Shown: one piece after another, positions 2,177 through 33,124 of the stretch | Numbering within the stretch: the stretch's first letter is position 1 | Layout: the number at the start of each line of letters is the position of its first letter | Source: an uncultured Planctomycetota bacterium | GTDB taxonomy: Bacteria > Planctomycetota > Planctomycetia > Isosphaerales > Isosphaeraceae | Assembly: GCA_963845755.1 (NCBI GenBank) | Contig: CAWJTV010000022.1 | Span: forward strand, 32,001-96,000 | DNA: 64,000 bases | Reading direction: 5' to 3' | Program-made: the position numbers and the translations under genes | Notes under the pieces: model-generated | The model's database searches: none | What the model was told of the DNA's origin: nothing | Seen by the model: the letters and a program-made list of their open reading frames with translations, nothing else

Positions 2177-4279
2177 TCACCTGCGTCGATTTCTTGCCTT
2201 CGCCAGGGAGAGGCGAGCTTGAGCATGATCGGGGCGGAGACGGAGGACCTCCTCGAATTCGGCGGCCGCATCTGATCTCCGACCCAAGGTGACCAGGATC
2301 GCACCCAGGACGTAGTGGGCCTGGGGATTCTGGTGATTGCGGCGGATGGCCTCTCGCAACTGGGTGATCGCTTCGGCGGAATGTCCCTGCTGGGCCAGCG
2401 CCAATCCGAGGTTGATCCGCGAACCGGAGTCATCGGGGTCTAGCCGGAGGGCCTTCTGGTAGTGGACAACGGCTTTGTCCTGACGGCCCTGGAGGACGTA
2501 TGCCGTCCCGAGGGCGGCATACGCCTCCGTGTAACCGGGCCGCAGCTCCACGGCCGTCTTCAACTCGCGGATCGCCTTATCAACCTTGCGTTGATGAATG
2601 AGAGCAACGCCCAGGTTGAAGTGGAGATTGGGAAAGTCCGGCTGAAGTTGGAGCCCCTCGCGATAAAGCGCGATCGCTTCGTCGGCATGCCCTTGATGCA
2701 CCAGGGCCGCACCCAGGTTGAGGGGAACCCTCGGATTCTGCGGCTGTAACCTCCTCGCCTCGCGAAGGTATGCGATGGCCGCGTCGTTGTCACCGTGGCG
2801 GTCCAGCGCGACACCCAGGTCGCAAGTGGCCTCGAAGTTATCGGGGCGGATGCGCAGAGCCTCGCGGAACTCGGCGATCGCAGGCTCCAACTTCCCTTCG
2901 TCGGCAAGCGTCGTGCCCATGAAATCATGCAACTCCGAGCTCCATCCGGCGTACTCCAGCGCATGTCCCCAGAGGTGCTCCGTGCTATCCCAGACGTGGC
3001 ATTGGGCCGAGCACAGCGCCATCGAGCCGCAAGCGACAGCGATCGTACCGGCCCCAGCCACGAGCAGAACCGGGCGCGACCATCGGCGTTGCGCGAGTCC
3101 GCAGGCCCCGGCGCAACCGAGGATAACCCATGCCATCAAGGGGGCATGGCCGTAGTGGTCCGACGCCAGGGTGATGTTGACCCGCGCCAGGCCGAGGTAG
3201 GGGGAGGCGATGACCAGATAGGCTGCCAGGGTCGCCAGCAACCCGGGCCATCTCCTCCGCAACACGAATGCTGCCGACACGGCGAGCACGACGCCGGCGA
3301 AGCACACCGCGAAGAGAGGCGTCAGGAAGTCTCCGCCCTCCGGGCGGGGATAAAAGGCTGTGATCCCGAGGGGCCAGGCGGTCTTCGCGAGATAGAAGCA
3401 AGCCCCGAAGCTCGCCTGAGCCACCCGGCCGACGAGCACAGGCTGAGTGGTCACCTCGGGATCTCCCCTCCACTTGGCCTCGAACGCTACAGCCGTGAAG
3501 ACCAGGCAGAAGACCAGGATGGCGCCTTTTTCGATCAGGACTGTCCGGACGGCGGGCCATAATGGAGGTTTCCCGGCGAGTCGCCCTAACGGATACGCAT
3601 CGAGGATGAGGAAGACAAACGGCAGGACGACAGCCGACCCCTTCGAGAGCACGGCCAGCACGATCAGCACAGACGAGCCGACCATCCAGGAACGGCGGTA
3701 CACCCCGCTCGAAGGATGGGCGCGCAGATAGGCCAACGTCGCGAGTAGCGAGAAGAATATGCTGGGCAGATGGGCCTGGCACGACGCCCAGGCGACCGTC
3801 TCAACCCGCAAGGGATGGACGGCGTACAATGCCACAGGAACGCCGCAAAGCCAGCCCAGCGCGCCTCCCAAACGCCCCGCAGCCTCGGGCATGGCCCTCG
3901 CCAAGAGTCGGACGCAGAGGAGATGCAAGAGGACCACGTTCACGACGTGGAAGAGGAGGCTGACGAGGTGATAGCCCCGCGGGTCGAGGCCGAAGATCTC
4001 GTAGGTGAGACTCTGGATCAGCCAGCCGAGCGGATGATAGTCGCTACCGGCGAACGAGGTGAATGCGAACTGGATCTGTTCCCAGCCCAGGCCGCGGAAC
4101 GCGTGGTTTTCGAGAATCCACTTGTGGTCGTCCCAATCGACGAACCCGTTGCTGAGCACCGGTGAGAAGGCGATCCACACGCCCGCGACGAGCACGACCC
4201 AGACCGGCCAGAGTATTCCCAGGCCCGGCATTTCGGCCGATTTGAGGACGGCGTTGGCAGGAAGATTCTTTCTTCCCAT
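2177..4279 (-). CDS. Multi-TM GT-C/PMT-like glycosyltransferase with C-terminal TPR array (TMTC-like)
   Basis: TM1 followed by FVDWDD, YHPLGW, HPLRVETVAW, SKGSAVVLP, about 10 hydrophobic segments, then about 8 TPR repeats. Likely start MGRKN at 4279 inside ORF 2177..4699. Confidence 0.8.
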   Translation of the reverse strand: MGRKNLPANAVLKSAEMPGLGILWPVWVVLVAGVWIAFSPVLSNGFVDWDDHKWILENHAFRGLGWEQIQFAFTSFAGSDYHPLGWLIQSLTYEIFGLDPRGYHLVSLLFHVVNVVLLHLLCVRLLARAMPEAAGRLGGALGWLCGVPVALYAVHPLRVETVAWASCQAHLPSIFFSLLATLAYLRAHPSSGVYRRSWMVGSSVLIVLAVLSKGSAVVLPFVFLILDAYPLGRLAGKPPLWPAVRTVLIEKGAILVFCLVFTAVAFEAKWRGDPEVTTQPVLVGRVAQASFGACFYLAKTAWPLGITAFYPRPEGGDFLTPLFAVCFAGVVLAVSAAFVLRRRWPGLLATLAAYLVIASPYLGLARVNITLASDHYGHAPLMAWVILGCAGACGLAQRRWSRPVLLVAGAGTIAVACGSMALCSAQCHVWDSTEHLWGHALEYAGWSSELHDFMGTTLADEGKLEPAIAEFREALRIRPDNFEATCDLGVALDRHGDNDAAIAYLREARRLQPQNPRVPLNLGAALVHQGHADEAIALYREGLQLQPDFPNLHFNLGVALIHQRKVDKAIRELKTAVELRPGYTEAYAALGTAYVLQGRQDKAVVHYQKALRLDPDDSGSRINLGLALAQQGHSAEAITQLREAIRRNHQNPQAHYVLGAILVTLGRRSDAAAEFEEVLRLRPDHAQARLSLAKARNRRR

Positions 4280-4735: not shown

Positions 4736-5476
4736 ATGAATATGTCTGTCTCTTTGGTGCTCCTGGCCCACAACGAGGCCGAGGTCGTCGAAGGGGTGAT
4801 CCGGGAATTTCATACCAAGGTCGTTTCGAAGATCCCGGGATCCGAGATCGTGGTGGCCGAGGACGGCAGTACCGACGGCACGAAGGAGATTCTCCGTCGC
4901 CTTTGCGACGAGATCCCCGAGATGCGCCTGGAAGAGGGGGAGGAGAAGCGCGGGTATGTCGGGGCCTTCAGGGCGGCCATGGCTCTGCCGAATAATGATC
5001 TGATCTTATTCTGTGATGCCAGCGGCAAGCACGACCCGGACGATTTCTGGCCGATGTATGAGCAGATCGCCGACTGCGATATGATCGTAGGTTACAAGAC
5101 GAAGCGCCAGGATCCCTTCTACCGGATCGTGCTGACGAAGGCCTTCAACTTCTGCGCGAACCGCTACTTTGACGTGTTTTTCCGCGACATCGATTGCCCG
5201 TTCCGGCTCATCCGCAAGGAAGCGTACCGAAAGGTCGAAGAGGTGCCGTGGATCCAGACGGCCCTCATCAACTTCGAGGTGACCGTCCGCATGGTCAAGC
5301 TGGGCTTCCGGGTCAAAGAAGTCCCGGTCAAACACTTTGCGCGGAAGAATGGACCATCGCGAGGCTTGCCACTGAAGTCGATTCCCGGAGTGATTCTGGA
5401 AACCTTGAGCAACTTCCCGGCAATCAGGAGGTCGATTCTCGCCATGCCCTCATCCTTCCGGTCAACTCGCGCCTGA
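4736..5476 (+). CDS. GT2 glycosyltransferase, polyprenol-phosphate sugar synthase (DPM1-like)
   Basis: LLAHNEA, VAEDGSTDGT, FCDASGKHDP (DxD-like), DIDCPFRL, EVPVKHFARKNGPS. Confidence 0.85.
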   Translation: MNMSVSLVLLAHNEAEVVEGVIREFHTKVVSKIPGSEIVVAEDGSTDGTKEILRRLCDEIPEMRLEEGEEKRGYVGAFRAAMALPNNDLILFCDASGKHDPDDFWPMYEQIADCDMIVGYKTKRQDPFYRIVLTKAFNFCANRYFDVFFRDIDCPFRLIRKEAYRKVEEVPWIQTALINFEVTVRMVKLGFRVKEVPVKHFARKNGPSRGLPLKSIPGVILETLSNFPAIRRSILAMPSSFRSTRA

Positions 5477-5807
5477 GATCAACGTGGGAGTCTCGTGAGC
5501 GGTCAAGGCCGGATGGCCTTGACGAATCCGACCCCCGCATGACGCCTTCGGCATCCTATTTGAAGCACTGGCTCTCTTCTGGTAGGTTGTGCGGAGCGGG
5601 ATCGGTCTCCGTCGCGCCATCAGGGTGATGGCGGCTCCGCCCGCATCAATCCCGAGCGCCGGCGCAGGATCCTCGGATCCCCAGGCTGCCAGGCCCGTGC
5701 GACGATCGTTGCGCCGCGCAATCATCTCCGATCCGGAGACGTGCCGCGAGACCGGCGAGCATGCAGAAAACGGACACCTCGTACCCCACGCTGGAGAAGA
5801 TAACACC

Positions 5808-6428
5808 ATGGCGGAATACACCTTACCTCCCTTGCCCTACGATCATGGCGCCCTGGAGCCACACATCGACGCCAAGACCATGGAGATTCATCACACCAAG
5901 CATCACCAGGCCTATGTCACCAACCTCAACAACGCGCTGAAGGATCACCCCGATCATCAGGGCAAGACGATCGAGGACCTGATCGGGCATCTCGACGCGT
6001 TGCCGGAGTCGATTCGGACCGCGGTGCGGAACAACGGGGGCGGGCACGCCAATCACTCGATGTTCTGGCAGATCATGAAGCCGGGTGGCGGAGGCGAGCC
6101 GACCGGGGCGTTGGCGGCGGCGATCACCTCCGACCTGGGCGGCTTCGCGGCCTTCAAGGACGCCCTGGCCAAGTCGGGGGCGGGCCGCTTCGGCTCGGGA
6201 TGGGCCTGGCTGATCCTGGGCAAGGACGGCAAGCTCGCCGTCACCTCGACGCCCAACCAGGATAGTCCGCTCATGGAGGGCCTGACCCCCATCATGGGTG
6301 TCGACGTCTGGGAGCATGCCTACTACTTGAAATACCAGAATCGGCGCCCGGATTACCTCGCGGCCTGGTGGAATACCCTGAACTGGGAGGAGATCGGCCG
6401 TCGCTTCGAGGTCGCGAAGAAGAAGTAG
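5808..6428 (+). CDS. sodA: Superoxide dismutase (Mn-type)
   Basis: [53 protein letters not shown] upstream of ATG 5808. Confidence 0.96.
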
Positions 6429-6741
6429 ACCGCGATGGGGGAGCAGATCACCCGACGACCGGCCCATTGCTTCCCGACGAGCCTCCCGCGATTCCGCTTG
6501 ACCGCCACCGGGGATTTCGTATCATTCCGACCGCCTCGGAAGGACCGTTCGTCCTTCCGAGGATCCTCTCCCCGCGAACGACTCGTCCGTGCCGATCATC
6601 GGGTCGGGATTCCGACACGTTCCCTATCTCGAGGCGTTGTCAACGGCGATGGCTGGTCGCCGCTCTCATAATTGGCCAGGTCACAAATCTTACTTTCGCC
6701 ACGGCGCCGGAGCGCGTCGGGCACCAGGGAAGGAGGAGGTC

Positions 6742-7164
6742 ATGTCGATGGATCGACTCAGACGCGTCCTGACCGGCGGGACTTTGGTGGCGATCTTGGG
6801 CCCCGTCATCGCAGCTTCGGGCTGCCGGAGCACGCGGAGCGAGGTGCCGCCCGGGAAGCCGTATTCCACAGTCGGCGGGACGCCCGACTTGAACTTCAAC
6901 TCCGCCCCGCACCCGAATAACTCCATCAATGGCGGCTTATACAGCGGTGGTACGCCCGGTATGCCCGGCCAGCCGGGTATGCCCGGCCCGGGGAGTCCCA
7001 CGGGAATCCCGGGGGGGATGGATGGCTCGCCTTCCGGCGCGGGATCGACCGGAACTCTGGGTACGCCCGGTCCCAACCAGACGCCCTTTGGACAGCCGAC
7101 GAACAACCAGTACGGCCCTCCCCAGGGTATGCCGCCCGTGGGGAGCTACAATCCGGGCCGCTGA
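6742..7164 (+). CDS. Pro/Gly-rich putative lipoprotein
   Basis: Strong RBS AGGAGGAGG, basic N-terminus, hydrophobic stretch, lipobox-like ASGC, low-complexity P/G tail. Confidence 0.65.
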   Translation: MSMDRLRRVLTGGTLVAILGPVIAASGCRSTRSEVPPGKPYSTVGGTPDLNFNSAPHPNNSINGGLYSGGTPGMPGQPGMPGPGSPTGIPGGMDGSPSGAGSTGTLGTPGPNQTPFGQPTNNQYGPPQGMPPVGSYNPGR

Positions 7165-7263
7165 GCCGACTGTCGTGGCAAGGGACAGTTCTGTAAACCG
7201 TTCGGACTGGGCTGGGGCTCGGTCGGCCGGACACCGGTCTGACCAGCCCCCAGCGACGACATC

Positions 7264-8005
7264 ATGAGCCCGTCCCTGGTGATCCTGTATGAAGATTCGG
7301 ACTGCCTGGCCGTCGCCAAGCCGGCCGGGCAGTTCACGCAGGGCCGCTGGGCACCGCCGGGCGAGGTGAGCCTGGAGATGGCGGTTCGCCGGCACCTCGA
7401 GGCCGATGATCCGGATTCGGTCTACCTGGGCATGGTCCACCGGCTAGACCGGCCGACTTCTGGGGTCTTGCTCTGGGCCAAGACGCCGAAGGCCGCCCGC
7501 CGGCTCTCGTCGCAATTCGAGAAGCGGCGGGTGGTCAAGGAATACTGGGCGATCGTGGAGCTGGGCCGCCGCGGAGAGGCCAACCCCGCATCGGCTCGGA
7601 CTGCCGACGCTCATGAGGAGACCTGGTGCGACTGGTTGACCCGTCCGAGCCAGGCCGGGTTGGTCCGGGTGGTTGCGCCGGAAACGCCGGGCTCGCGCCA
7701 AGCCATGACCCTGGTGCAGCACACCGCGCGGGCGGAACTGCCGGCCGGCTGTGCCTGGTTAAGACTCTGGCCACAGACCGGGCGGACCCATCAACTCCGC
7801 CGCCCAGGCCGCCTCGCGGGGGATGCCGATCGTCGGCGATGTCGAATATGGATCCGCCACGGCGTTCGGGGCACCGCATTCGATCGCGCTCCACGCCCGG
7901 TCGCTTCAGGTTCGTCACCCGATCCTTCAGACCGCGCTGACCCTCGACGCGCCTATCCCTCCCGAGTGGCACTCCTGGGGAGTGTCGGGGACGAGTGGTG
8001 GCTGA
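7264..8005 (+). CDS. rluA: RluA-family RNA pseudouridine synthase (frameshift near 7800)
   Basis: AVAKPAG, VHRLDRPTSG, TGRTHQLR; continues in another frame as PIVGDVEYG...ALHARSLQVRHP. Confidence 0.88.
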
Positions 8006-8027
8006 AGGTCAAGCCCGTCAGCCGGGC

Positions 8028-8507
8028 TCAGGGCAGGCTGATCTCGAGGATCTTCAATGTGCGGACCCCGCGGGGGACCGGGACCTCAACCTGCTCTCCG
8101 ACCTGTTTCCCGACCAGGCTCTGGCCGACCGGACCGGTGATCGGGATCTTATCCTGGTCGGGGTCCTCCTCGCCGGGACCGACCAGGATGTAGTCTTCTT
8201 CCTCGTTGAAGTCAACGTCGAGAACGCGGACCTTCAAGCCGAACGCGGCCCGTTCGGTGGACAGGTTGGACTTGTCCACGATGTACGCTCGACTGAGCGT
8301 GTTCTGGACATCGTTGATCTTGGCCTGGAGCATCCCCTGCGCCTCGACAGCCGCGTCGAACTCGGCATTCTCCGACAGGTCGCCGTATCCCCGGGCCTGG
8401 GCGATCTGCTCGGCGATCCGGGGCATGTCCTCGTTTTTGTACTTGTCGAGCTCGGCCTTCTTCTTGTCATAGCCTTCCTTCGACATAGGAATTCGGTCGT
8501 TGGACAT
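8028..8507 (-). CDS. greA: Transcription elongation factor GreA
   Basis: ARGYGDLSENAEFDAA, PVGQSLVGKQVGEQVEVPVPRG. Confidence 0.95.
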   Translation of the reverse strand: MSNDRIPMSKEGYDKKKAELDKYKNEDMPRIAEQIAQARGYGDLSENAEFDAAVEAQGMLQAKINDVQNTLSRAYIVDKSNLSTERAAFGLKVRVLDVDFNEEEDYILVGPGEEDPDQDKIPITGPVGQSLVGKQVGEQVEVPVPRGVRTLKILEISLP

Positions 8508-9011
8508 GCGGGTCTGCTCCCTCTTTCTGACATGCGACCGCCGCCAACCGGCGACCGAGTGCCGACGAATCCCCAAGGACTCGATGGCACGGAGAGGCTG
8601 ATCCTCGTTGCGCTCGCTCAACTCGGCTTGTTCACCGGAAGATTCGGAGCCAGGATGCCCCGTCGACCGTCACGCTGAATCGGGCCTTGCTCGCGATCGC
8701 CCGTGGTCGGTCGGTCTGTAGAAGTCTCCGTCGCCGGGTGGCACTCGATTCGACACAGTCTTCGCGTGATGCGCCCGGCCCGGTCCGATCGAATGAGAAA
8801 GACCGCGGCCTGGTGATCGCCAGATCCGCGGTCATCCGTCTTTTGCGTAAATTCAGCCTAGCTTCCTGGGATCGATGACGCAAGACCATCTCGGTTCAGT
8901 GTTTCTGCGTTCAGTACAAACCGGGACCACAGAGGCGGACGCATGGGTCGAACTCCGGTTCCGCCTTCTTCCGGCCGCGGAATGCCGATCACGGAAGCGA
9001 ACGAAACGACC

Positions 9012-10290
9012 TCACTCGTGCCTCAGGGCCTCGATCGGGTCCATGAGTGCGGCACGACGAGCGGGGTAGATCCCGAAGAGGATGCCGATGGCCACCGAGA
9101 TGCTGAAGGCTAGCAGCACCGACGCACCGGTCACGACGGCTTTCTGGTCGGGGATGAAATAAATGATCAGTTGGGGGATCAGGAAGCCGACGGCCACGCC
9201 GAGCAAGCCGCCCACCCCGGAGAGCACGACCGTCTCGATCAAGAACTGCTGGGTGATATCCCGGCGCTCGGCGCCGAGGGCTCGCCGGATGCCGATCTCG
9301 CGCGTTCGTTCGGTGACCGTCGCGAGCATGATGTTCATGATGCCGATGCCGCCGACCAGCAAGGAGATCGCCGCGATCGTACCCAGGATGATGCTGAACT
9401 GGCGGGCCTGCCTCTGGGCTGCGACGAGCAGGTCGTAGGGGACCGTCATGTCCACGTCGTTCTTGGGATGAAAGCGCTTGTAGCACGCTTCGATCAGGGG
9501 GACGGTAGGAGTCACCTGGTCGATCGTGCCGACCTGGACGGTGATCTGGGTGAGCTGGGTCTCTTCGGCCTGGGACGAGCCGGATCGATTGTCAACGATC
9601 TTTTCCCCGAAGCGCAGCTTGCAAGTATTGAGGGGGATGTACACGTCCTTGTTGTAATCCTGGGCCGCCACGCTGCCGCCGATCCCGGCCGAGCTGGCGC
9701 GCTCCGCCGTCACGCCCACGACCGTATAGTAGTCGGTGCCGAGCTTGACCGATTGATTGATCGGGTTCTCGAAGGGGAAGAGTCGTATGGCCGTCTCGTG
9801 GGCGAGGACGGCGTAATTCTCATACCTCTCGTTATCCGAGGCGGTCAGGAAGCGTCCCTTCTCGATCTGGAGCAGGTTGAAATCGGCATACTCGTGCGTG
9901 GTACCGACGACGCGACCGTCCAGGTACAGAGACCCGTGCCGGATCTGTTTCTTGATCTCGCGAATGGGCAAAATCTTACGGATCGTCGGGATCGTCTCGA
10001 CCATCCGGTCGAAGTCGGCGTACTTCAGCCCATAGTTGAGCACCCGGGGTGGCCGGCCGCCGGTTCAACTGGACTTCATCACTCGGCTTGACCGAGCGAA
10101 GGATGATATTAGTGGCCCCCAGGGCCTGGATCCGTTCCCGGGCCTCCCGGCTGCTCCCCTCGGCGATCGACAACATCGAAATCACCGCCGCCACGCCGAA
10201 GACGATGCCGAGCACGGTCAGGCCCGACCGCAGCTTGTGGAGCAACAGGCTCTTCATGCCCAGCTTCAGCGCCCGCCAGATGCGTCCCAT
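9012..10290 (-). CDS. MacB/FtsX-type ABC transporter permease (frameshift near 10060)
   Basis: [61 protein letters not shown]. Confidence 0.9.
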
Positions 10291-24169: not shown

Positions 24170-26367
24170 ATGCCGCAAGCGATGGTAGATCCCACGGATG
24201 AACGATATCGTCATGGGGTGAGGACCCTGTTCGCACAAGCGGCCGAGCTGCCTCAAGACGAACGCGCGGCCTTCCTGGACGCCGCCTGTCGCGGCGAACC
24301 CGACCTCCGCGCGGAAGTGGAAGGATTACTCGCTTACGACGCCGGTTCCGGAGGCGAGGAGGACGAGGACGGCTTCCTGAAAAGCCCGCTGGTCCGCGCG
24401 CCGGTGCCATCGCCGCCCGAACCGTCGTGTCCGCCGCAAGGAGGAGAGCCCGGGCTGCCCGTTCACATCGGCCGCTATCGCATCCTCCGCCGGCACGGCG
24501 AAGGGGGCATGGGCACCGTCTACGAGGCCGAACAGCACAACCCGCGGCGCACCGTCGCTCTCAAGGTGATCCGGCCCGGCCTGGTCTCGCCCGAGATCGT
24601 CAAACGGTTCGGCCAGGAGGCCCAGATCCTGGCCCGGCTCCAGCATCCGGGGATCGCCCAGGTCCATGAATCGGGGATGGATGACGACGGCCGGCCGTTC
24701 TTCGCCATGGAGTTCATCCGCGGCATGCCCCTGGACGAGTACGCCCGCAGTCGCGCCGCGACGCGCCGGCGCGACTCGAACTGTTCGCCAAGGTCTGCGA
24801 CGCGGTGAAGCACGCCCACGACAAAGGCGTCATCCATCGCGACCTCAAGCCCGGCAACATCCTGGTCGAAGAATCCGGCCAGCCCAAGGTGCTCGACTTC
24901 GGCGTCGCCCACGTCACCGCCGCCGCCCTCCTGACGACCTGGGGCCAGACCCAGACCGGTCTCTTGCTGGGCACCTTGAGCTACATGAGCCCGGAACAGC
25001 TCGACGCCCACCCGAGCGAGCTCGACGGTCGCTCGGATGTGTACACGCTGGGCGTCATTCTCTTCGAGCTGCTGGCACAACGGTTGCCATACCCGATCCA
25101 TCAACTGCCGTGGCATGAGGTCGCACGGGCGATCAAGGAAGAGGGCCCAACACGGTTGACCTCGATCGACCGGCGTTACCGCGGCGAGGTCGAGATCATC
25201 GTGGCCAAGGCGCTGGAGAAGGACAAGGCGCGGCGGTACGCCTCGGCGGGGGACCTGGCGTCGGACATCCGGCGCCATCTGCGCGGGGAGGCGATCCAGG
25301 CCCGGCCGGTCAGCACCGCGGCACGATCCTGGCGATGGGCTCGCCGCAACCCGACCATCGCCGTGCTCGGAGGCGCTCTCACCGGAGTGCTGGTGCTCGC
25401 CACGGTGAGCTCGCTGCTGGCGGCGTGGCTCTACACTCAGGCCCAAACCCAGCGCAAGCTCACCGCCGAGCGCGAGTCCGAGCGTCAGAGGGCGCTGCAA
25501 GCCGGAGCGAAGGAGGCCGCGGCCCACCGCACGGCCGACGAGGCGTACGCCAGCCTCCGCGCCACCCGGGAGGAGCTTCGCCGGACGGTGTACGCCACCC
25601 GGTCAAACCTCGCCCTGGCCGCCTGGGACAACAACGATGTCGGCCGCCTGCGCAAGCTCCTCGAACTCCTGCGGCCCGCTCCGGAGGACCCCGACCCCCG
25701 TAGCTGGGAGTGGCGCTATCTCTGGCAGCTCGGCCACGAGGACCGGCTCACGCTCCAGGCTCACGACGACCGTTTCGCCGACGTGGCGTTGAGTCCCGAC
25801 GGCCAAGTCCTCGCCACGCTCGCGAAAAAAGGCCGAATCGAGCTCCGCGACCGCACCACCGGGGACTGCCTCCGTACCATCGCGGCCACGACCCGGGACG
25901 GGGGACTCGCCGACGGCGTCCACGCCCTCGCCTTCAACCCGGACGGCCGCAGCCTCGTCGGACCGGGGCCGGACGACAGCCTCGCGCTCTACGCCGTCGA
26001 AACGGGCCGACCCATGCTCCGCTTCGAGGGCCCCACGGGCGCGGTCCTGGAGCTGGCCTGGAGCCCGGACGGCCGGACCCTCGTCGCCGCGATCTCCGCT
26101 CACTCGATGCGCGTCTGGGACGCCCGCGATGGTCATCTGATCCACAGGGTCTTCGGGAGTCACGCCGGGCCTGTCACCTCCGTGGCGTTCAGCCCCGACG
26201 GCCACACCATCGCCTCGGCCAGCTACGACCGAACCATCAAGCTTTGGGAAGCCGCCCCCGCGGCCGCCCTCTCCGCCCCGCGGGAGAAAAATGGCGGGAG
26301 AAAAAGGGAGACTCCTCGGAATGCCACGAAGTTAGTGCACAAATCCTGCCTTCTAAACAAGTTGTAG
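24170..26367 (+). CDS. Ser/Thr protein kinase with TM and WD40 repeats (frameshift near 24765; last codons supplied by IS4)
   Basis: GEGGMGTVY, VALKV, HRDLKPGN, DFG, GTLSYMSPEQ, SDVYTLG; WD40 repeats such as SVAFSPDGHTIASASYDRTIKLWE. Confidence 0.9.
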
Positions 26368-26442
26368 CATCTTGAGCAAAGGAGGGGCTCCGGGCAATCT
26401 GGTGGTAGGTCCCAGCCACCCTGACCCCGAAGGAGCCCTCCC

Positions 26443-27318
26443 GTGCCGGTACGGATTGTCACCATCTTGGGCCGTCTCAAGCAAGACCTCGCCGACGGGC
26501 TTTCTCGCGAGGCCATCGAGCAGGCATGCAAGCAGGAGAAATACTCGTGGCGCGCAGCGGATGCTCGATCCGGTCACGACCGTCTATCTGTTTATCCTCC
26601 AGATCCTTCACGGCAACACCGCCTGTTCGCACGTGGTCCACTTCGGCCGATGGAACTTCACCGATGCCGCCTACTGTGCCGCGCGGAAGCGGCTCCCCCT
26701 GGCGGTCCTCCGCCGCCTTGCTGCGCGGATCGCCGCGAGTGTCCGGACGGCGACGACGGCCCAATCGACCTGGCACGGCCACCGGGTCTGGCTCCTCGAC
26801 GGGTCGAGCTTCTCGATGCCCGACACCCGCGAGCTGCAGGAGGCATTCGGCCAGCCCAGCGGCCAGCGGCGGGGATGCGGCTTCCCGGTCGCCAAGTTTC
26901 TGGCACTCTTCGACCTGGCCACCGGCATGCTCCTGCGGGTCGAGCCGGCGCCGCTCCGCTCGCACGAGATGGCGCGATCTCGCCGTGGCCACCTCCGCTC
27001 TGAACCCCGGCGACATCGCGCTGGGTGACCGCGCCTTTTGCTCATACGCTCACCTGGCCATCCTCCTGAACCGCAAGCAGCACGGGGTCTTCCGCGCGCA
27101 TCAGCGCCAGATCATCGACTTCACTCCGGGTCGGCCGCAGGCGGTGCGGGGCAAGGGGAAGAAGCCGCACGAGGCAAAGATCCGTCCGCATTCGCGGTGG
27201 GTGCTCTCGCAGGGCGAATCCGATCAAGTAGTCATCTGGTCCAAGCCCAAGTCTCATCCGAGATGGATCACCAAGGATGAGTATGCGTCACTGCAAGAAG
27301 AGATCGCGGTGCGTGAGC
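26443..27318 (+). pseudogene. IS4 transposase, 5' part (two frameshifts, split by IS66)
   Basis: RVWLLDGSSFSMPDT, GFPVAK, LGDRAFCSY. Confidence 0.88.
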
Positions 27319-27531
27319 GAGTGCGTCCGGTGAACCACATCTTCAAAGCGGTTCACGGGCGTGAGATGATGTTCGGGGCACCGTCTTGATTCTTTCACTG
27401 TGCTCGGCGCACGCGATCATCCCGCGCTCGCGCCGGGCCGAGACGAACTTGGGGCGGGACAAACCTTGAGGGGCGCGCGCAATCGCCCCGCGCTCGTCCG
27501 GGGTGACGAGGAGCGCGGGGCTCGGGTGCGG

Positions 27532-29106
27532 TCACTCAGTCCCGTCGGCGCCGGCCTGGTGCAACTCCTGCCAGCGGTCCGGCAGCAGTTCGTCGATCCG
27601 CTTCGCCGGGTGCGTGCTGATCCGATCGAGCCCATCGCGGAGGTAAGCCTGGGGGTCGATCCCCAGATTCTTGCAGGTCGTGCACAAGCTCATCAACACG
27701 GCCGCCGTCTGGCCTCCCTGGTCGCTCCCCGCGAATAACCAGTTCTTCCGTCCCAGCGCCACGGGCTTGAACGCGCGCGCGCACGCACCGTTGTCCAGTT
27801 CGAGGAACCCGGCCTCCAACGGACGCTTCAGGGCCTCCCAATGGTTCAAGGCATACTGGATCGCTTCGCCGATCGGACTCTTGGGCAGAACCTTGGGCTG
27901 CTCGGCTTCCAGCCAGGCGTGAAACTTGTCGAAGATCGAACGCGATCGCTCGTTTCGCAGTTCGTGCCGGAACGCGACGAAGGCCTCGTAGTCCGCGGTC
28001 GCGCGCTTCTTGGCGTCGCGTTCGACGTCGTAGAGCAGGCTGATCCATGCCAGCGCCTGATGGGACCGTTGCGGGTCGACGGTCCGCGCCTCGTAGAACT
28101 TCCGTCGCGCGTGCATCATGCAGCCGACCTCGATAATCTCGCCCGACTTGTACAGGCCGTCGTAGGCCGAATAGGCGTCGGCCTGGAGATAACCCTGGAA
28201 GTCCTTGAAGATCTCCCGGGGCCCGGTGGCGCTGCGGTCCGGCGTGTAGCGATAGACCACGTAAGGATGGCCGCGGTCGCCGACGGAGACCCAGAGCCGG
28301 CCGGTCTTGATCCCCTTGCCGTCGTGGTCCTGCACCGGCACCGTCGTGTCGTCGTTCTGGACGACCCTGGAGCTGAGGATCTTCTTCAGCATCAGATCGA
28401 CGATCGGCTTGAGCAGATCGGCGATCGTGGCCATCCAGTCGCACATCGTTAACCGCGACAACTCGACGCCCGAGCGATCGAGGATTCCCTCGAGGCGATA
28501 GAGCGGCAAGTGATCGGCATATTTGCTGACGGCGACGTAAGCCAGCAGCCCCGGGCCTGGCAGGCCCTTGTCGATCGGCTCGGGGAGCACGTCGGCGATC
28601 ACGACGTTGGCCTGGCAGTCCTGGCAAGCGTACTTGGGGCGGATGTGTTCGAGGATGACCAGGCGGGCGGGGATGAATTCGAGTTGCTCGCGGACTTCCC
28701 GGCCGATGCAGGTGCGCTCGGCGCCGCAGTCGGGGCAAGTGCGTTGTTCGGGCGGGACGTCGTGCAAGACCGGCACTCGGGGCAGGCTCGCCGGCAACGG
28801 CTTGCGTCCGTGGCCCTTCTTCTGGGCCGCACTCGGAGCGGGCGTCGGGGCCGGGGCCGGCTCCGGGGTCGGGGCGGGTGTCGGCGCCGCCTCGGCCTGC
28901 TCCAGGATCTCCCGGGCGAAGAGCAAGAGCTGGGCCGGGTCGATCCGCTCCCCTTTGGGACCGTAGCGCTGGCGGAGGAGCTGCTCGAGCTGGTGCTGGA
29001 GCTTCTCGTTGAGATGGACCTGCTGGGCGAGCGACTTGAGCAGCTCACGGATGAGCTGATGGGCCGCCTCCAGGTCGTCCGGGAGTGGGTCCGCGAGGGT
29101 GATCAT
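27532..29106 (-). CDS. tnpC: IS66 transposase TnpC
   Basis: YGPKGER coiled coil, CPDC...CQDC zinc finger, KYADHLPLYR, QADAYSAY, CMMHARRKF, GRKNWLF. Confidence 0.93.
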   Translation of the reverse strand: MITLADPLPDDLEAAHQLIRELLKSLAQQVHLNEKLQHQLEQLLRQRYGPKGERIDPAQLLLFAREILEQAEAAPTPAPTPEPAPAPTPAPSAAQKKGHGRKPLPASLPRVPVLHDVPPEQRTCPDCGAERTCIGREVREQLEFIPARLVILEHIRPKYACQDCQANVVIADVLPEPIDKGLPGPGLLAYVAVSKYADHLPLYRLEGILDRSGVELSRLTMCDWMATIADLLKPIVDLMLKKILSSRVVQNDDTTVPVQDHDGKGIKTGRLWVSVGDRGHPYVVYRYTPDRSATGPREIFKDFQGYLQADAYSAYDGLYKSGEIIEVGCMMHARRKFYEARTVDPQRSHQALAWISLLYDVERDAKKRATADYEAFVAFRHELRNERSRSIFDKFHAWLEAEQPKVLPKSPIGEAIQYALNHWEALKRPLEAGFLELDNGACARAFKPVALGRKNWLFAGSDQGGQTAAVLMSLCTTCKNLGIDPQAYLRDGLDRISTHPAKRIDELLPDRWQELHQAGADGTE

Positions 29107-29145
29107 ACCCTATACTACGTTGACGGGTGCTCGATTGTTGGCGCA

Positions 29146-29332
29146 TTATGCTCCTGTCGGTAGATTATTCTCCGAATTTCGAAGGGGAGTGGCGGGCCGC
29201 GAGTAGCGGACGCGCCGTCGGGCCTTGTCCAGATCGATGCCGGCCAGGAGGGCGGCGAGTTCGGCGGTGGTCATCTCGACGCGATCGGCCGCCGCGTCCG
29301 GGATGCGGAAGGTGCCGCGTTCGAGCCTCTTG
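29146..29332 (-). pseudogene. tnpB: IS66 tnpB, 3' fragment
   Basis: KRLERGTFRIP...AELAALLAGID. Confidence 0.88.
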
Positions 29333-29422
29333 ATGCTGGCATCACAGGACCCTCGTTCTTGTGGCGTTACACAAATCCTGAGACGTTGGGCTACTGCCGC
29401 CACGAATCGGCGGCCTCTCTTG

Positions 29423-31604
29423 CTACCGGTCGGGACGGTCCTTGGGAACGACCAACTCAGGGTGCCGGGCGGCGATCCAGGAGTTCTTTCGTCTGGCCAG
29501 TTGTCGCAGGCGACGAACCTCGTCCTTGTCGGCCCACACGATCAGATGCTTTCCCGAAGGCGTACGCCGCGAATGGACCCAACCCTGCTTGATCCAATAA
29601 TGGACCTTCTGGGCGATGACGCCGAGTTTCCCGGCCAAGTCGGGGATCCACCACTCGTCCTGGCCGACGAGGTCGTCGCGGAACAGTTCTCCGACCAGCC
29701 CAAGTTCACGGACCAACGCCCCGATCGTTCCCGCCGTGAACACGCCGCGACGGCGCGGCGGGACGAAGCCCTCGGCATTGAGCCGCGCGGCGATCTGCGA
29801 CAGGTGAAGTCCTTCTCGATGGAGTTGCTTGATTCGTTCCGTGAGGCGTCGAAAATCCTTCAATTGCTCATACCTGCCGACTGGCCTCGCGACCTGCTGT
29901 TGGGTTGTCATGCCGCCGAGCCAAACGATCGTTACCTCGTTGAGCTCAGTCGCCTTGTCGGCCACGACAATGACCCGCTCCACCGCGCAGCGCACGATCT
30001 GCTTGCGATCCATCGCCGACGTGCCTGGTGCGTGCCAGAGCGCGGCGACGCTCTCGGAGAGCGATCGAATCCGTTGGCGATCGGCGTCGTTCAGCGTCGC
30101 CGGCAGTCTCGTCAGGAACCGATGGTAATCCTCCTCCGTTTGACGCTGCTTCTTCAGCGCGTCCTCCCACCGCGCCTCGAGTGTCCGCGCCACGAGTCGG
30201 TTCTCGGGCTCCACGGCCTGATACTGCCGCTCGGCCCTCTCGACCTCCTGGCGTGCGCGTTCCAGAGTCTGACGCCAATGGTCGTGGAGGCGCTTGCGCT
30301 CTCGCTCGGCGTTCTCGATCGCGCGTAGGCTCAGGTCCAGCGCAGCGGGCTCCAACTGCGCGGAGCACTTCCTTCGCGACCAGGTCGTCCAGCGTCTTTG
30401 CCGAGATGCACCCGCACGGCTCGTCCAGGGCCAGCCGCCAATACTCGCCGCAGTGATAGCCGGGCTTCTTGTCGGCCTTGTATCGCGTCGTCATGTGGCG
30501 GCCGCATTTCCCACAGACGACCAGGCCGGGCAGCAAGGCCTCGCCGCGTTTGGGCACGCCCCGCGTGTCGTGGAGCGATCGATTCTGTTTGAGGCGTTCC
30601 TGATTCGCGAGATAGCGATCCCAGCTAATGTACGCTGGGAGCCGATCCGGCAGGAACACGGCCAACTCCTCGGGCGGCACGAACCACTTGCCGCCTTCGG
30701 CTCGACCCGTCGTGGGATTCTTCGTCCCCGCGCGATGTAGGCCATAAGCGTATGCCCCCGCATAGATGGGGTGTCGCAAGATCGACAGGACTCGACTGGG
30801 AGAGGCTGGCTTCCACTCCAGCTCCCCAATGCGCCCACCGCGATGACGGCGAAATCCCAGTTGCAGGTTGTTCACGACCAGGTAACGGAAGACCGCGTAG
30901 GCGGAACCGAGTTCCTCGAACTTCTCGAACACCAACTGAATCATTCCACGCGCCTGCTCGTCAGGCTCTTGAATGATCTCGCCCGTGGCCGTCTTGAGGT
31001 ATCCCAGCGGAACGGCCAGGAACAGCTCGCCGCGCTCCGCTTTGTTCCGACTGCCTCGAAGCAAACGATTGTACATAGTAATCAATTCGTATTCGCTCAT
31101 TGCGCTTTTCATGCCAAGGAGGAGACGATCGTTACTGTCCAAGGCATCGTAGACGCCATCTTGATCGCATAGCAGGGTGCGAAAGATGCCGCAGACGTCG
31201 ATAAGACGATGCCATTCGGTATTCGACCGCGACACCCTGCTAAGCTCCAACCCCAGCACGATCCCCACGTGGTTCAAGCTCACTTCCGTCATCAACCGCT
31301 GGAAGCCCGTGCGATGGTCGGTCAACTTGCCGCCGTGGCCCTGATCCTCGTCGATGATCACCACCCGCTCTGCGGGCCAACCGAGCCGTTGCGCGAACTG
31401 CGCCAGAGCATACTGCCGTTCGCGAGACTCGCGGTTCTCGAGGACTTGCTGCGGCGTTGACTGCCGCACGTACACGATCGCGAGTCGATCGAGATGCCGA
31501 TCGCCAATCTTCGAGCTCGACCTCTGGCCGAAGGTGGAGGTCGATGGAGTCTCGTCGATTGATCTGTCCGTGCGATTGACGGCCCGTGCATCACGAGATT
31601 TCAT
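29423..31604 (-). CDS. Large serine recombinase, ~725 aa (frameshift near 30352)
   Basis: YVRQST catalytic Ser, LELSRVSR, recombinase domain (VPLGY, ILRHPIYAGAY), Zn ribbon CGKC...YHC...C, coiled coil with VEPENRLVARTLEARW, C-terminal HTH-like segment. Confidence 0.92.
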
Positions 31605-31781
31605 CGCGCACCTCCTGAGCGGTGCGAGGCGCGCCGAGTTGTCGAGTCACGATGTCGCTGAGGGTGAGCAGCGTTCGTTGACGCTGCTCGTCCGTCAGTC
31701 GGCTCCAGAGTTGGTCCAGCACCGACGGCCGAACGACCGACGTGCGCGGGGGGGAGCAACGAGTCCGGCGTCTCGCGACAT
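31591..31781 (-). CDS. Small (~63 aa) ORF overlapping the LSR start
   Basis: RBS AAGGAGG before ATG 31781. Adding one base to the G7 run (31748-31754) joins it to the LWSRLTDEQRQRTLLTLS...EVRDEIS frame, whose 3' end overlaps the LSR ATG. Confidence 0.65.
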
Positions 31782-31853
31782 GGGGCACCTCCTTGGATCA
31801 CGGGGTGTTGAGCTTCGATCCATTCCGCCAGCCGCATCAGGCCGGCCAGCGCG

Positions 31854-31883
31854 ATTATGGGGGTGTCCGACGATTCCTGTAAA
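31854..31883 (-). promoter_or_regulatory. Putative sigma70 promoter of the LSR element
   Basis: TTTACA-N18-CATAAT on the minus strand, just inside the element end. Confidence 0.45.
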
Positions 31884-31915
31884 GTCGAGAGGATGGGGGC
31901 AGTCTTACTCGTACT

Positions 31916-32123
31916 TCTTGGCCCAGACGGCCAGGCCATCGCGATCCCAGTACAGGATCTTGATGCGGTCGCGGCGCTTGTTGACGAAGACGAAGAGATG
32001 ACCGGAGAGGGGATCTAGCGCCAGGCTGCCTGATGCCAGGGCGGCCAGGCCGTCAAAGCTCTTGCGCATGTCGGCCGGCTGTTTGGCGAGATAGACGCGG
32101 ACCGCGGCGCTCAGTCCGAACAT
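31916..32123 (-). pseudogene. tnpB: IS66 tnpB, 5' fragment
   Basis: VYLAKQPADMRKSFDGL...SGHLFVFVNKRRDRIKILYWDRDGLAVWAK. Confidence 0.92.
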
Positions 32124-32476
32124 GGGCGTCCCTCCACGACCGCGATGAGATGGCGGAGGGTCAGGGGGTCGAATCCGGGGGCGACGGCGATCCGACGTCC
32201 GTTGGAGAGGATGAGTTCGAGGTGGGGTCCCGAGGCGGCGCTCGGCGGGATGGGATCGGGAAGGATAGTGACCGGGAGGAAATGGCGGTCGGCACTGGCG
32301 AAAGGACGATCGTCGCTGGGAGTGCGATCGGCCGGGGCGGGCTGGTAGAGATGCTTTCGGAAGGAGTGAAGCGAGATTTGGCGAAGGCGGCAGAACTCGG
32401 CTTGAGTCAGACCGCTCCTGCGGAAATCGTTGAGGAGGGCATTCCATCGTAGATCGATGGTTCGGCTTCGAGACAC
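32111..32476 (-). CDS. tnpA: IS66 TnpA accessory protein
   Basis: SGLTQAEFCR HTH, FLPVTI, LELILSNGRRIAV; overlaps the tnpB start. Confidence 0.85.
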   Translation of the reverse strand: MSRSRTIDLRWNALLNDFRRSGLTQAEFCRLRQISLHSFRKHLYQPAPADRTPSDDRPFASADRHFLPVTILPDPIPPSAASGPHLELILSNGRRIAVAPGFDPLTLRHLIAVVEGRPCSD

Positions 32477-32577
32477 GGCGTGATCTCCCTGACGGGACCA
32501 CTGGCCCCGACAGCACTATCATCGCGGGGAGTCACGCCGCTTTGTAGATGCACTTCACCGGACGGACACGCGTGAGC

Positions 32578-33065
32578 TGCGATATAAGGTCTCGACGCCG
32601 GGATACCGTGTCGGCGAGGTGACGCTGGTGACGACGCTCCTGGACGCGTCGGTGTACCCGGCGGAGGCGCTGGCGGATCTGTACTTCCGGCGATGGCAGG
32701 TGGAAGTTTATCTGAGAGACTTGAAGATCACGTTGAAGATGGATGTGCTGAAGTGCAAGACAGTGGATGGCGTGTTGAAGGAGCTGGCGGTCTTCGCCCT
32801 GGTGTACAACCTGGTGCGATCGGTGGCGTGCCAGGCGGCGCAGGCTCAGGGCGTGGCTGCGGACCGGGTGAGCGTGACCGACGCAGTGCGATGGCTGGTG
32901 GGCGCCGAAGGGGACGAGGATCTGTCGGTGATCTTGACCGTCCCCAAGCGGAAGGGTCGATTCGAGCCGCGCGTCAAGAAGCGCCGCCCGAAACAGTACG
33001 ATCTGATGACCAAACCCCGCAGAGAACTACGTAAAGAGCTTCTGGACAACAAGGTTGCAGCTTAA
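32578..33065 (+). pseudogene. IS4 transposase, 3' part
   Basis: TLVTTLLD, LYFRRWQVEVYLRDLK (YREK signature), EPRVKKRRPKQY. Confidence 0.9.
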
Positions 33066-33124
33066 ATTCGCGGCATTCGGGAGACTCCTCGCTTATCACC
33101 ACCCCTCGAGGACGGCGACCCACT

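Follow-up and report, generated by a model that had tools for sequence, protein, structure and literature searches.

Organization of the locus

The window, a stretch of 64,000 nucleotides from an uncultured planctomycete of the family Isosphaeraceae, contains an IS66-family element whose tnpB gene is split by an insert encoding a large serine recombinase (LSR). All genes of the IS66 and of the insert lie on the minus strand. The composite unit, consisting of the IS66-family element (about 2.66 kb) and the LSR element, occupies 27319–32569 (minus strand), as defined by the extent of identity among the copies in this genome. End comparison places the imperfect terminal inverted repeats of the IS66 at about 27319–27358 and 32530–32569. 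The unit is flanked by an 8-bp target-site duplication, GCGTGAGC, whose left copy (27311–27318) coincides with the 8 bp over which intact copies of the interrupted host IS overlap, and whose right copy (32570–32577) was found by end comparison. This other IS is recognizable from uninterrupted copies on C11, C24, C30 and C5, and its two parts cover 26319–27318 and 32570–33078. The IS66 tnpC gene (27532–29106), encoding a DDE transposase of 524 aa, is intact in the window copy and matches the Pfam families DDE_Tnp_IS66 (3.6e-87), zf-IS66, LZ_Tnp_IS66 and DDE_Tnp_IS66_C. The tnpA gene (orf1, 121 aa; 32111–32476) is assigned by its position, as it matches no Pfam family. The host shows the tnpA-tnpB-tnpC arrangement, the DDE transposase, the terminal inverted repeats and the 8-bp duplication of the IS66 family.

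The N-terminal fragment of tnpB (31917–32123, minus strand; 69 aa) ends in W-A-K and matches TnpB_IS66 at positions 2–62 (E = 2.7e-24); its reading frame runs three codons into the element and then meets a stop. The C-terminal fragment (29146–29331, minus strand, stop codon included) starts with K-R-L-E and matches positions 62–100 (E = 2.1e-07). The gene is cut cleanly at a single profile position, 62, and the two abutting matches bear out the initial annotation, which had described tnpB as split. The insert had further been given as 2,588 bp with CAAGA at both junctions, in agreement with the cores at 31916–31920 (attL) and 29328–29332 (attR), both on the minus strand, and its removal does restore W-A-K-R-L-E in frame, as claimed. 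CAAGA as a 5-bp core holds in this lineage, whereas across relatives AAG alone is common, and the bases shared by attL and attR range from 3 to 8 bp across lineages. The crossover dinucleotide is probably the AA of the tnpB lysine codon (29331–29330 at attR), given that attL and attR have different bases directly after AA at three sites. The reported lack of terminal inverted repeats stands for repeats of the IS type, but weak dyad elements resembling those of attP sites lie at the element ends, where TTACA and CCCNC blocks recur at corresponding distances (identified by eye and unscored). The split is not a chance event, since nine copies have identical junctions and a single 3,555-nt short-read contig from an independent run (record 1, 28889–32444) bridges both of them.

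The LSR element itself spans 29329–31916 (minus strand; 2,588 bp, which includes the core once), its limits being set by the junctions and by the empty site in another genome (G023, see below). It carries no cargo: no further gene fits within the 2,588 bp besides a small upstream gene and the recombinase gene.

The recombinase and the small upstream gene

The recombinase gene (29423–31604, minus strand) encodes 726 aa, as read from the intact copy C20a, in which the frame is uninterrupted over 740 codons. The frameshift reported for the window copy is an assembly error, a spurious extra base at 30357 that is absent from the short-read contigs of 4/4 runs. The initial description of a ~725-aa large serine recombinase is confirmed by Pfam: an N-terminal resolvase-type catalytic domain (Resolvase, residues 42–193, E = 5.5e-16) is followed by a Recombinase domain (residues 221–341, E = 6.6e-12) and a zinc ribbon (Zn_ribbon_recom, residues 357–413, E = 1e-09), the order typical of LSRs. 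In a four-sequence alignment, Y45, V46, R47 and Q48 of a Y-V-R-Q-S motif (residues 45–49) are invariant, as are Cys 364, 367, 385 and 397, and the putative catalytic serine is placed by its position. The mode of insertion is likewise that of an LSR, with a short identical core, no target duplication and exact restoration of the target in the empty G023 allele.

The body of the small gene (31594–31915, minus strand) begins directly at the left end of the element, lacks its own start codon and extends into the start of the recombinase gene. The ~63-aa ORF (31594–31788) that had been taken as the whole gene is really the C-terminal part of a gene of ~111 codons. A C7 tract (31748–31754, minus strand; G7 on the plus strand) puts the two halves in different frames, and with six C a single frame of 107 codons results. 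No indel at this tract is listed in the short-read contigs of four runs, and length polymorphism of the tract recurs in other genomes. The right end of the element (29340–29354, minus strand) holds a Shine-Dalgarno-like GAGGG (29354–29350), a 7-nt spacer and an ATG (29342–29340), which read outward, toward the junction. When the sequence is followed across the joined ends, the right end supplies the ribosome-binding site, the ATG and the first 3–4 codons of the small gene. As these signals sit at the opposite end of the integrated element, excision as a circle would be what provides the small gene with its own translation start, and the gene would be complete solely once the ends are joined. 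The recombinase is probably translated from the circle start too, since the stop and start codons of the two genes overlap. Clades A and B (see below) and many other family members keep a GGAGG-N4-7-ATG arrangement at the right end; joining the ends yields the junction gene in both clades and in the G111 type, and its protein is conserved down to 35% identity. Two points count against this interpretation: the small gene is out of frame at the C tract in most copies, and the conserved GGAGG..ATG of the right end, instead of starting translation, could serve the recombinase as a binding motif.

The small gene has no match among Pfam families and no relative in the ESM Atlas, where the best score (0.82) lies under the useful range. 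A predicted complex of the recombinase and the small protein scored 0.63, against 0.00 for the best of three controls; the mark used for such scores is reached by 116/157 solved complexes and 2/215 mismatched pairs, counts that are valid only roughly because the alignments were our own and had four rows. At least 38% of contacts are common to the runs, and the pLDDT of the partner is at least 45, so that the fold of the small protein is of low confidence. The predicted interface joins small-protein residues 65–94 to recombinase residues 412–435, 500–540 and 561–567, the first two of these segments flanking a long, conserved, helical-looking stretch (the recombinase was modelled as part of the pair). 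The model supports binding of the small protein to the recombinase and would put its C-terminal helix at the foot of a putative coiled coil of the recombinase. Directionality factors of serine integrases are described as acting on the coiled-coil subdomain (PMC11722253; PMC5814800), and the small protein may be read as a directionality or activity cofactor. Recombination directionality factors are said to have no common fold (PMC11795197), which takes membership of this group beyond what sequence can decide.

Related elements and target choice

A survey of 185,579 species genomes yielded 56 loci, with tnpB at the junction in 18. Close relatives of the recombinase form clade A, which is monophyletic (SH-aLRT 100). 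Whether LSR homologues prefer tnpB had been posed as a question by the initial annotation, and in clade A 15/18 determinable loci lie at the same W-x-K/KRLE codon of tnpB (the slash marks the insertion point), the remaining 3/18 lying elsewhere. Clade B, whose LSR is distant (about 48% identity), occupies the same tnpB codon (G119, three times, and G029). The IS66 elements entered are diverse: the TnpB N-terminal parts beside 15 examined elements fall into 14 clusters at 90%. A consensus for attB was built from 12 sites.

The empty state is seen in G023, where the flanks of the occupied copy L051 match the unoccupied IS66 copy L047 at 98.9% and 94.7%, the two matches overlapping by 7 bp where they meet; this genome has eight tnpB matches of identical score and length, and the empty state was read from one of them (L047). 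The empty copy equals left flank, core and right flank, as the reconstruction of intact tnpB had predicted. The element is also recently duplicated within genomes. In G023, a second copy is 99.4% identical to the first, whereas the flanks of the IS66 that holds it share 80% and 69% identity with those of the first, and G071 contains two elements that are 99.8% identical in IS66 copies that are 76–77% identical. These comparisons support the view that the element moved independently of its IS66 in both genomes. In one metagenome-assembled genome (MAG), the element that occupies tnpB at L100 is present at two further sites (L096 and L097), which indicates that the element moves without IS66. An independent soil run of another study (X5) contains an element variant of 97.5% identity, on a contig that diverges 22–26 nt outside both junctions. 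The 20 sequencing runs listed with the element are all of soil or rhizosphere DNA, with no RNA run among them. The earlier proposal of an element whose attB lies inside another mobile element, IS66 tnpB, is supported by this comparison with other genomes: because the same tnpB codon is occupied here and in many related soil bacteria, the insert appears as a mobile element living inside other mobile elements.

Sister LSR lineages lie inside IS66 tnpC, DDE transposases, IS3 orfA and another LSR gene. In IS66 tnpC the site is the zinc finger, in IS3 orfA it is the helix-turn-helix, and in IS4/IS5/IS701-type transposases it lies around DDE_Tnp_1 profile position ~164, near the last catalytic residue; the LSR genes entered are akin to those of the sister lineages themselves. 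The flanks were surveyed with Pfam from 519 ORF references of 30 loci, of which the first and third batches of 150 were run (the second and fourth, 219 references, entered only through re-listed loci); most short flank fragments have no Pfam match, so that 'no family' means little there. Among plasmids, 545 records were found, many of them rhizobial, all below 60% identity and the best at about 43–44% in cyanobacteria, Streptomyces and Azospirillum. Among five plasmid regions examined, an IS701 transposase fragment abuts the recombinase in one (L143) and the homologue is interrupted by an IS66 in another (L146); none showed a split tnpB, and the PLSDB tables omit pseudogenes. Among viral contigs, 202 pattern matches included no relative.

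Copies within the genome

The same insert, with identical junctions, is present in nine copies in this genome. The IS66 copies of this lineage are occupied in 9/9 cases, eight being near-identical and one being diverged and cut at a contig end. The search for intact copies of this IS66 that had been suggested accordingly gave none: an empty attB of this IS66 was found neither in the genome's own assembly nor in any fetched locus. The same holds for the excised circle or a tandem junction, the other form to be looked for. The contigs of four sequencing runs also hold neither a joint skipping the element nor a circle, which is weak evidence as contigs drop rare forms. An apparently suitable tnpB site on C9 is unoccupied, which counts against the reading as an integrative element. 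The genome has a single intact tnpB, which is that of a different IS66 (62% identity).

How the nine copies arose can be explained in two ways. A single integration into tnpB may have been followed by IS66 transposition of the 5,251-bp composite, with the LSR element as a passenger, and for this genome such a history has about an even chance of being right. As all nine copies are occupied and none is empty, IS66 and insert may have been amplified together; among full-length copies both parts are essentially identical, and the window copy has the IS66 inverted repeats, an 8-bp duplication within another IS and an intact tnpC. Serine recombination is conservative, and a gain in copy number is unexplained by it alone. 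However, tnpB is broken in every copy, the sole intact one coming from the different IS66, and all three IS66 genes of IS679 are reportedly required for transposition; our literature search on the requirement for IS66 TnpB found no relevant paper. In addition, the element spreads without IS66 in other genomes, and in the diverged copy C13b the insert is closer to the main type (96–98.5% identity) than are the adjacent tnpB C-terminal part and 5' half of tnpC (91–93%), a pattern that fits later entry of the insert or recombination. The sequence differences among the copies are not decisive, since they are sequencing errors. Dating the copies by shared substitutions was attempted and rejected: the informative sites split by orientation (plus = A, minus = G) and at 31458 the four short-read runs all have the other base, so that the differences are strand-linked errors; they also follow GCGC contexts. 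Transposition of the composite accounts for the nine filled copies as well as repeated integration does.

A model for movement and its alternatives

The insert is very probably an autonomous, cargo-less integrative element moved by its own LSR. In the proposed mechanism, attL x attR recombination by the LSR would release the element as a circle, which would re-insert by attP x attB recombination, with crossover at the AA of the tnpB lysine codon. The putative attB is the DNA for the conserved D-R-D-G-x-x-x-W-x-K/R-L-E-x-G-x-F stretch of IS66 TnpB. Since this site is held constant by selection at the protein level, the element could enter IS66 elements that are otherwise only 60–80% alike. Orientation is fixed, the recombinase gene always pointing in the direction of tnpB. 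The element may still be active.

It is improbable that the insert is instead a domesticated switch kept by IS66 or its host, in which excision restores tnpB and licenses IS66 transposition, comparable to skin and SPbeta in sporulation genes. The exact restoration of the tnpB frame would suit such a role, as would two features of expression: because the element is always oriented as tnpB, transcription from IS66 continues into the small gene and the recombinase gene, and because the start signals of the small gene are at the far end, the integrated element must rely on signals from outside for its expression. However, most IS66 copies elsewhere lack the element, with two split and about 12 unsplit tnpB matches in G023 and two split in G029, where most of the other 24 tnpB matches cover positions 2–100. 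The element is also found at non-tnpB sites, and its sister lineages occupy unrelated mobile-element genes, which looks like parasitism. A single ancient insertion that has co-diverged with IS66, tnpB being never or no longer chosen and the recurrent site reflecting common descent, is very improbable. It would explain why element and IS66 occur together across several planctomycete lineages, but not elements of 99.4–99.8% identity in IS66 copies that are 69–80% identical, the occurrence in G023 of one IS66 in both empty and filled form, or the same element at non-IS66 sites of one genome. Finally, mis-assembly of repeats in a long-read metagenome bin can practically be dismissed, as the independent short-read contig crosses both junctions and the same junctions recur in many other assemblies, short-read ones included, even though this genome is error-prone (indels at GCGC contexts and strand-linked base errors) and the copy pair C13a/C13b is oddly joined at a contig end.

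Comparison with known systems

An autonomous element of this kind can be set beside four known types. Tn4451/Tn5397-type elements are larger and have a GA dinucleotide as target, with relaxed specificity. As proposed here, the LSRs of Tn4451/Tn4453 (TnpX) and Tn5397 (TndX) excise a circle that re-inserts without target duplication beyond the crossover. They carry cargo, such as resistance or conjugation genes, whereas the present element is IS-sized with no room for any; it targets one conserved codon of a gene that is itself mobile, at which 15/18 clade-A loci lie, with AA as the probable crossover. The circle joint of Tn4451 is cited as forming a promoter for tnpX (Lyras & Rood, 2000, cited in PMC13023037). 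This joint-dependent expression is analogous to that proposed here, where the joint would assemble a coding sequence and its ribosome-binding site. A multi-targeting LSR clade is described as marked by DUF4368, present in 63% of its LSRs (PMC10083194); DUF4368 is absent from the Pfam matches of this LSR at E <= 0.01.

Serine integrases of phages and prophage-like elements (phiC31, Bxb1, SPbeta SprA/SprB) are described as recombining attP with an attB of about 40 bp over a 2-nt crossover (PMC11722253; PMC5814800), and gene-interrupting prophage-like elements as restoring the gene precisely upon excision (PMC5499854). The present element resembles them in the proposed attP x attB reaction over a probable 2-nt crossover and in the small candidate directionality factor. 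It is, however, not a phage, its target is multicopy and mobile, and the candidate cofactor gene is split by integration. The recombinase is distant as well, the sole PDB sequence match being to a resolvase catalytic domain (E = 2.7e-05).

IS607 is likewise an IS-sized element moved by a serine recombinase, described as lacking terminal inverted repeats and target duplication (PMC6188088). Its TnpA is reported to be small, to bind DNA through an N-terminal domain and to show minimal target specificity (PMC4058570; PMC6188088). The catalytic domain of IS607 recombinases is C-terminal, whereas the LSR of 726 aa found here has its catalytic domain first, followed by the Recombinase domain and zinc ribbon, and a defined target.

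The fourth comparison is with group II introns, which the element resembles in being a selfish element nested in other mobile DNA. Bacterial group II introns prefer sites inside other mobile DNA, at low cost to the host. They rely on RNA splicing and on retrohoming or DNA transposition and can be removed from the transcript, whereas the present element would use site-specific DNA recombination, and the target gene is broken while the element is present.

Implications for IS66 and its hosts

In the part of a broad LSR survey that bears on targets, the GO term 'transposase activity' is not enriched (6/1069 vs 2/908, FDR 0.37; PMC10083194, supplementary file 3), and a full-text literature search found no description of an LSR element targeting IS66 tnpB. 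The element may represent one branch of a radiation of cargo-less, IS-sized LSR elements in Planctomycetota, with relatives in other phyla; the arguments for and against such a radiation are roughly in balance. Its lineages would each be specialized on a conserved motif in other mobile-element genes, and all would share a design in which integration parts the translation start from a cofactor-plus-recombinase operon, full expression being confined to the circle.

Genome sequences directly provide the attP site and a large number of natural attB variants, which, together with a compact recombinase and a candidate cofactor, make the family a source of tools. Natural off-target sites and sister enzymes with other targets complete a specificity series that would be useful for studies of DNA recognition and direction control in LSRs. 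Serine-recombinase elements would join the short list of selfish elements inside selfish elements. IS66 would offer them a safe, multicopy and horizontally travelling target, and one recombinase can follow the whole IS family because the target is a conserved protein motif. As entry would break transposase genes, such hyperparasites could act as a brake on insertion sequences in IS-rich genomes; should IS66 be silenced by the insertion, the IS load of large soil genomes would be affected by them.

The insertion and its host IS66

The element resides in an IS66-family insertion sequence at 27319-32569 (minus strand), which has imperfect terminal inverted repeats and is bordered by the 8-bp target duplication GCGTGAGC. 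Its tnpB gene is split into an N-terminal part (31917-32123), ending in W-A-K and matching positions 2-62 of the Pfam TnpB_IS66 profile, and a C-terminal part (29149-29331), beginning with K-R-L-E and matching positions 62-100. One CAAGA repeat lies at each junction (31916-31920 and 29328-29332), and the insertion lengthens tnpB by 2,588 bp. Within the insert, a small gene precedes the gene of a 726-aa large serine recombinase (LSR) with Resolvase, Recombinase and Zn_ribbon_recom domains (Pfam). The split tnpB, the insert with its LSR and the CAAGA at both ends had been described in the initial annotation, and the reading of ORFs and profile positions bears that observation out. The host of the IS66 composite (IS66 plus element) is another IS, uninterrupted copies of which occur elsewhere in the same genome. 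This IS-within-IS nest adjoins a gene for a Ser/Thr kinase with WD40 repeats (24805-26367, plus strand), which ends right at the start of the interrupted IS (26319-27318).

tnpB as a recurrent target

Within the same bacterial family, recombinase homologues (E <= 1e-30) were recovered from 68 of 121 genomes, frequently as several identical copies. Among the 30 best loci of a first survey, both tnpB halves flank the recombinase in five and the C half alone in one more (L017, from the source genome of the window, L018, L019, L029, L039 and L035). A second survey, for which 185,579 species genomes were scanned, yielded 56 recombinase loci, nearly all labelled as Planctomycetota (Gemmataceae, Planctomycetaceae, Pirellulales, Phycisphaerales and a Singulisphaera isolate), with a few on short contigs binned elsewhere. 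Here, a panel tblastn identified both tnpB halves at 11 loci and the N half at five, and K-R-L-E was read directly at the right junction of two further loci. The close LSR relatives of the element (clade A) are monophyletic in a quick maximum-likelihood tree (SH-aLRT 100), and 15 of the 18 clade A loci with readable junctions lie in tnpB. The other three (L094, L096, L097) lie outside it, L096 and L097 sharing a genome with the tnpB-borne L100. A distant clade (clade B; ~48% identity; three loci in genome G119, and G029) occupies the same tnpB codon; the quick tree gave no resolution of a sister relation between the two clades. The preference of homologous elements for tnpB, as originally proposed, is thus upheld by the clade A count and by the position of clade B. 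The 15 TnpB N parts beside elements fall into 14 clusters at 90% identity.

In genome G023, a filled IS66 (L051) matches an empty one (L047, the copy compared in detail among eight tnpB matches of identical score and length) with 98.9% identity along 1,317 bp on one side and 94.7% along 661 bp on the other; the two alignments share 7 bp where they meet, and the insert there measures 2,580 bp. An intact tnpB therefore agrees with the sequence reconstructed by removing the insert. A second G023 element copy is 99.4% identical to the first, with IS66 flanks at 80% (N side) and 69% (C side), and G071 contains two elements 99.8% identical inside IS66 copies 76-77% identical.

Several irregular loci were also seen. 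An otherwise unsplit tnpB of G071 (L060, contig C19, locus ~3338-3343, minus strand) has 7 extra bases exactly at W-Y-K|R-L-E, shifting the frame; they match the first bases of the left end of the G071 element, and the locus looks like imprecise element loss via deletion between short repeats. IS66 halves are mixed at L052 (G023; N side 80% like type A, C side 87% like type B) and at L059 (G029; N side 96%, C side 88-89% like one empty copy), as recombination between elements in different IS66 copies would produce. At L058 (G029:C1, locus 5059-9791), the tnpB halves lie 4,733 bp apart against the usual ~2,570 bp, and the element probably carries an additional insertion.

Attachment site and crossover

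Twelve reconstructed sites give the attB consensus cG.GA.GG..T.g...TcTGGta.AAG|cGgCT.GAG...GG.accTT.C, which codes for D-R-D-G...W-x-K|R-L-E-x-G-x-F. The recombinase gene always has the direction of tnpB. A 5-bp CAAGA core had been put forward; it holds at both window junctions and for the window lineage, but across lineages attB and attP have only AAG in common, whereas clade B shares 8 bp. In L096, L094 and L108, attL and attR have different bases directly following AA; the exchange thus falls no later than this position, and AA is taken as the probable crossover dinucleotide. Exchange over a 2-nt crossover is described for serine integrases (PMC11722253).

A small gene across the joined ends

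At its right end, the element has a Shine-Dalgarno-like motif followed, after a 4-7-nt spacer, by an outward-reading ATG 11-17 nt from the junction. Clades A and B share this motif, and it was also seen at a minimum of 12 among 30 distinct further loci of the family. When the ends are joined in silico as a circle, the ATG frame runs into the left end and spans 108-112 codons, both in clades A and B and for elements of the G111 type. In a fourth type (G107), the joined-end frame has 26 codons only, the element boundary perhaps being misplaced. Conservation of the small protein extends to homologues at 35% identity, 24 positions being invariant, and the 3' end of its gene overlaps the start codon of the recombinase. 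While the element is integrated, the gene lacks a conserved start of its own. The ~63-aa ORF initially reported constitutes only the C-terminal part of this longer gene.

Within the small gene, a run of C (window 31748-31754) varies between copies and genomes. Six C place both halves in one frame (two of eight near-identical copies of the source genome, both G023 copies, L087 and L091, two of three in G119, L096 and L100), and seven C place them in different frames (the other six source-genome copies, G071 and L097). The frame likewise breaks after the tract in L090, L094, L098, L099, L101, L105 and L108. As short-read contigs show no indel at the tract, the 7-C state is real. Tract length thus varies within single genomes (2 vs 6 copies in the source genome, 2 vs 1 in G119, L096/L100 vs L097), and determines whether a single protein contains both the N-terminal part and the helix predicted to bind the recombinase. 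The variation may reflect phase variation, +1 frameshifting or two separate products. Just upstream of the tract, the conserved codons for Q-G-G-x-P-C double as AAGGAGG-N6-ATG, which may serve as an internal start.

Complex prediction for the small protein and the recombinase scored 0.63, the best of three controls 0.00. Of 157 solved complexes, 116 attain the prediction mark, as do 2 of 215 mismatched pairs; these counts are rough because custom alignments were used. Contacts agree between models in at least 38%, and the partner has a pLDDT of at least 45, its fold being uncertain. The modelled contacts join the C-terminal helix of the small protein (65-94) to recombinase residues 412-435 and 500-540, a region just after the zinc ribbon. 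The models support a putative interaction between the two proteins. Directionality factors are reported to act on the part of serine integrases just after the zinc ribbon (PMC5814800; PMC11722253).

Copies in the source genome

The source genome (14.3 Mb, 49 contigs, 88% complete) contains nine insert copies, eight at 99.6-100% identity and one, a 97% variant, at a contig end. The tnpB junction is identical in all nine, and the unit of identity is the entire 5,251-bp composite. Empty copies of the window's IS66 are absent from this assembly, all nine copies of the lineage being filled; the sole unsplit tnpB of this genome, on contig C9, belongs to a different IS66 (62% identity). Whether the composite multiplied here through transposition of IS66 is about evenly balanced: the filled state of every copy of the lineage fits such transposition, whereas every copy has a broken tnpB and, in the diverged copy, the insert is 96-98.5% identical to the main type vs 91-93% for the adjacent IS66 parts, neither point being decisive. 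A mis-assembled insert is excluded by a 3,555-nt short-read contig spanning both junctions.

The copies differ by single-base indels adjacent to GCGC and by a small number of base changes that track copy orientation exactly. In contigs of all four independent soil runs, the base at 30357 is absent and that at 31458 is another base, and in one copy (C20a) the recombinase frame is fully open; the 'frameshift' ascribed to the LSR is thus an assembly error. Given the indels, the orientation-linked changes and the disagreement with short reads, the copies of this genome carry no usable genealogy. Base calls in GTCAAC- and GTTAAC-like contexts also differ by strand, a pattern that, together with the GCGC indels, typifies long-read errors linked to methylation. 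Any frameshift elsewhere in this genome is to be interpreted accordingly, and many of the genomes compared are metagenome bins with long-read errors. At one locus (L014, G000:C13:343104-351972), two composites abut, one of which, cut inside tnpC, joins a diverged element copy directly; this copy is without its first 36 bp, the contig stops there, and a rearrangement or a join made during assembly would account for the abutment.

Sister lineages in other mobile-element genes

The recombinase family has further members that likewise form sharply bounded multicopy units, 2.5-2.9 kb long, and several of these lie inside mobile-element genes. They interrupt the zinc finger of IS66 tnpC (L076, G010; both flanks matched), DDE_Tnp_1 near profile position 164 (L069 in G111, L072 in G107), a Tn5-like transposase (L068, G111), HTH_Tnp_1 of IS3 orfA at positions 34-39 (L085 and L086, G023), a DDE_3 fragment (L020, G006; one flank only), less surely tyrosine-recombinase gene fragments (L081 and L082, G039), and, in the Singulisphaera isolate, another LSR gene, split between its Recombinase and zinc-ribbon domains (L115). 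For many loci, among them two of the four G111 copies (L067, L070), the partial flank survey matched no host-gene family, so residence of sister LSR lineages in genes of other mobile elements is stated as likely rather than measured.

On the Singulisphaera sp. PoT chromosome (L115, L131, L134, L136), an LSR element is nested in the recombinase gene of another, and the nested 5-kb composite is repeated at 99.8% (L115 vs L134); as a cultured isolate, this strain is useful experimentally. At L080 (G046:C11:456809-463848), a recombinase homologue lies in a 1,126-codon open frame directly after RHS-repeat coding sequence, either as a fusion or through insertion into an RHS gene, and RHS repeats precede the homologue at L079 too. 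On a Streptomyces plasmid (L143, NZ_CP109482.1), a fragment of 702 bp annotated as 'IS701 family transposase' lies directly against a recombinase of 42% identity, and a group II intron is close by; residence in IS genes may extend beyond Planctomycetota.

Proposed cycle and significance

From the anatomy of the element, we infer a cycle in which the recombinase would cut it out as a circle and insert it into tnpB of any IS66 offering the conserved site. The complete small gene with its start signals would exist in the circle alone and, given the overlapping stop and start codons, the circle would probably drive recombinase translation too, so that expression would surge at the time re-insertion is required. 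Once integrated, the element would depend on expression from outside, most simply from IS66 transcripts entering from tnpA-tnpB. As the recombinase is conservative, recombination itself does not explain a rise in copy number, which may come from excision after replication or from riding on IS66. The proposed joint-dependent expression would resemble that of Tn4451, in which the circle joint reportedly forms a promoter. Neither an excised circle nor an empty site of the window's IS66 was seen in the source assembly, the loci compared or the contigs of four soil runs, and there is no RNA run among the sequencing runs listed as carrying the element.

Full-text literature searches turned up neither a serine-recombinase element in IS66 tnpB nor LSR elements specialised on transposase genes, and in a large survey of LSR targets transposase activity was not enriched (PMC10083194). 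The mechanism class of the element is known. New, as far as found, are its cargo-less IS size, the targeting of a conserved codon in another mobile element, and a gene split across attP.
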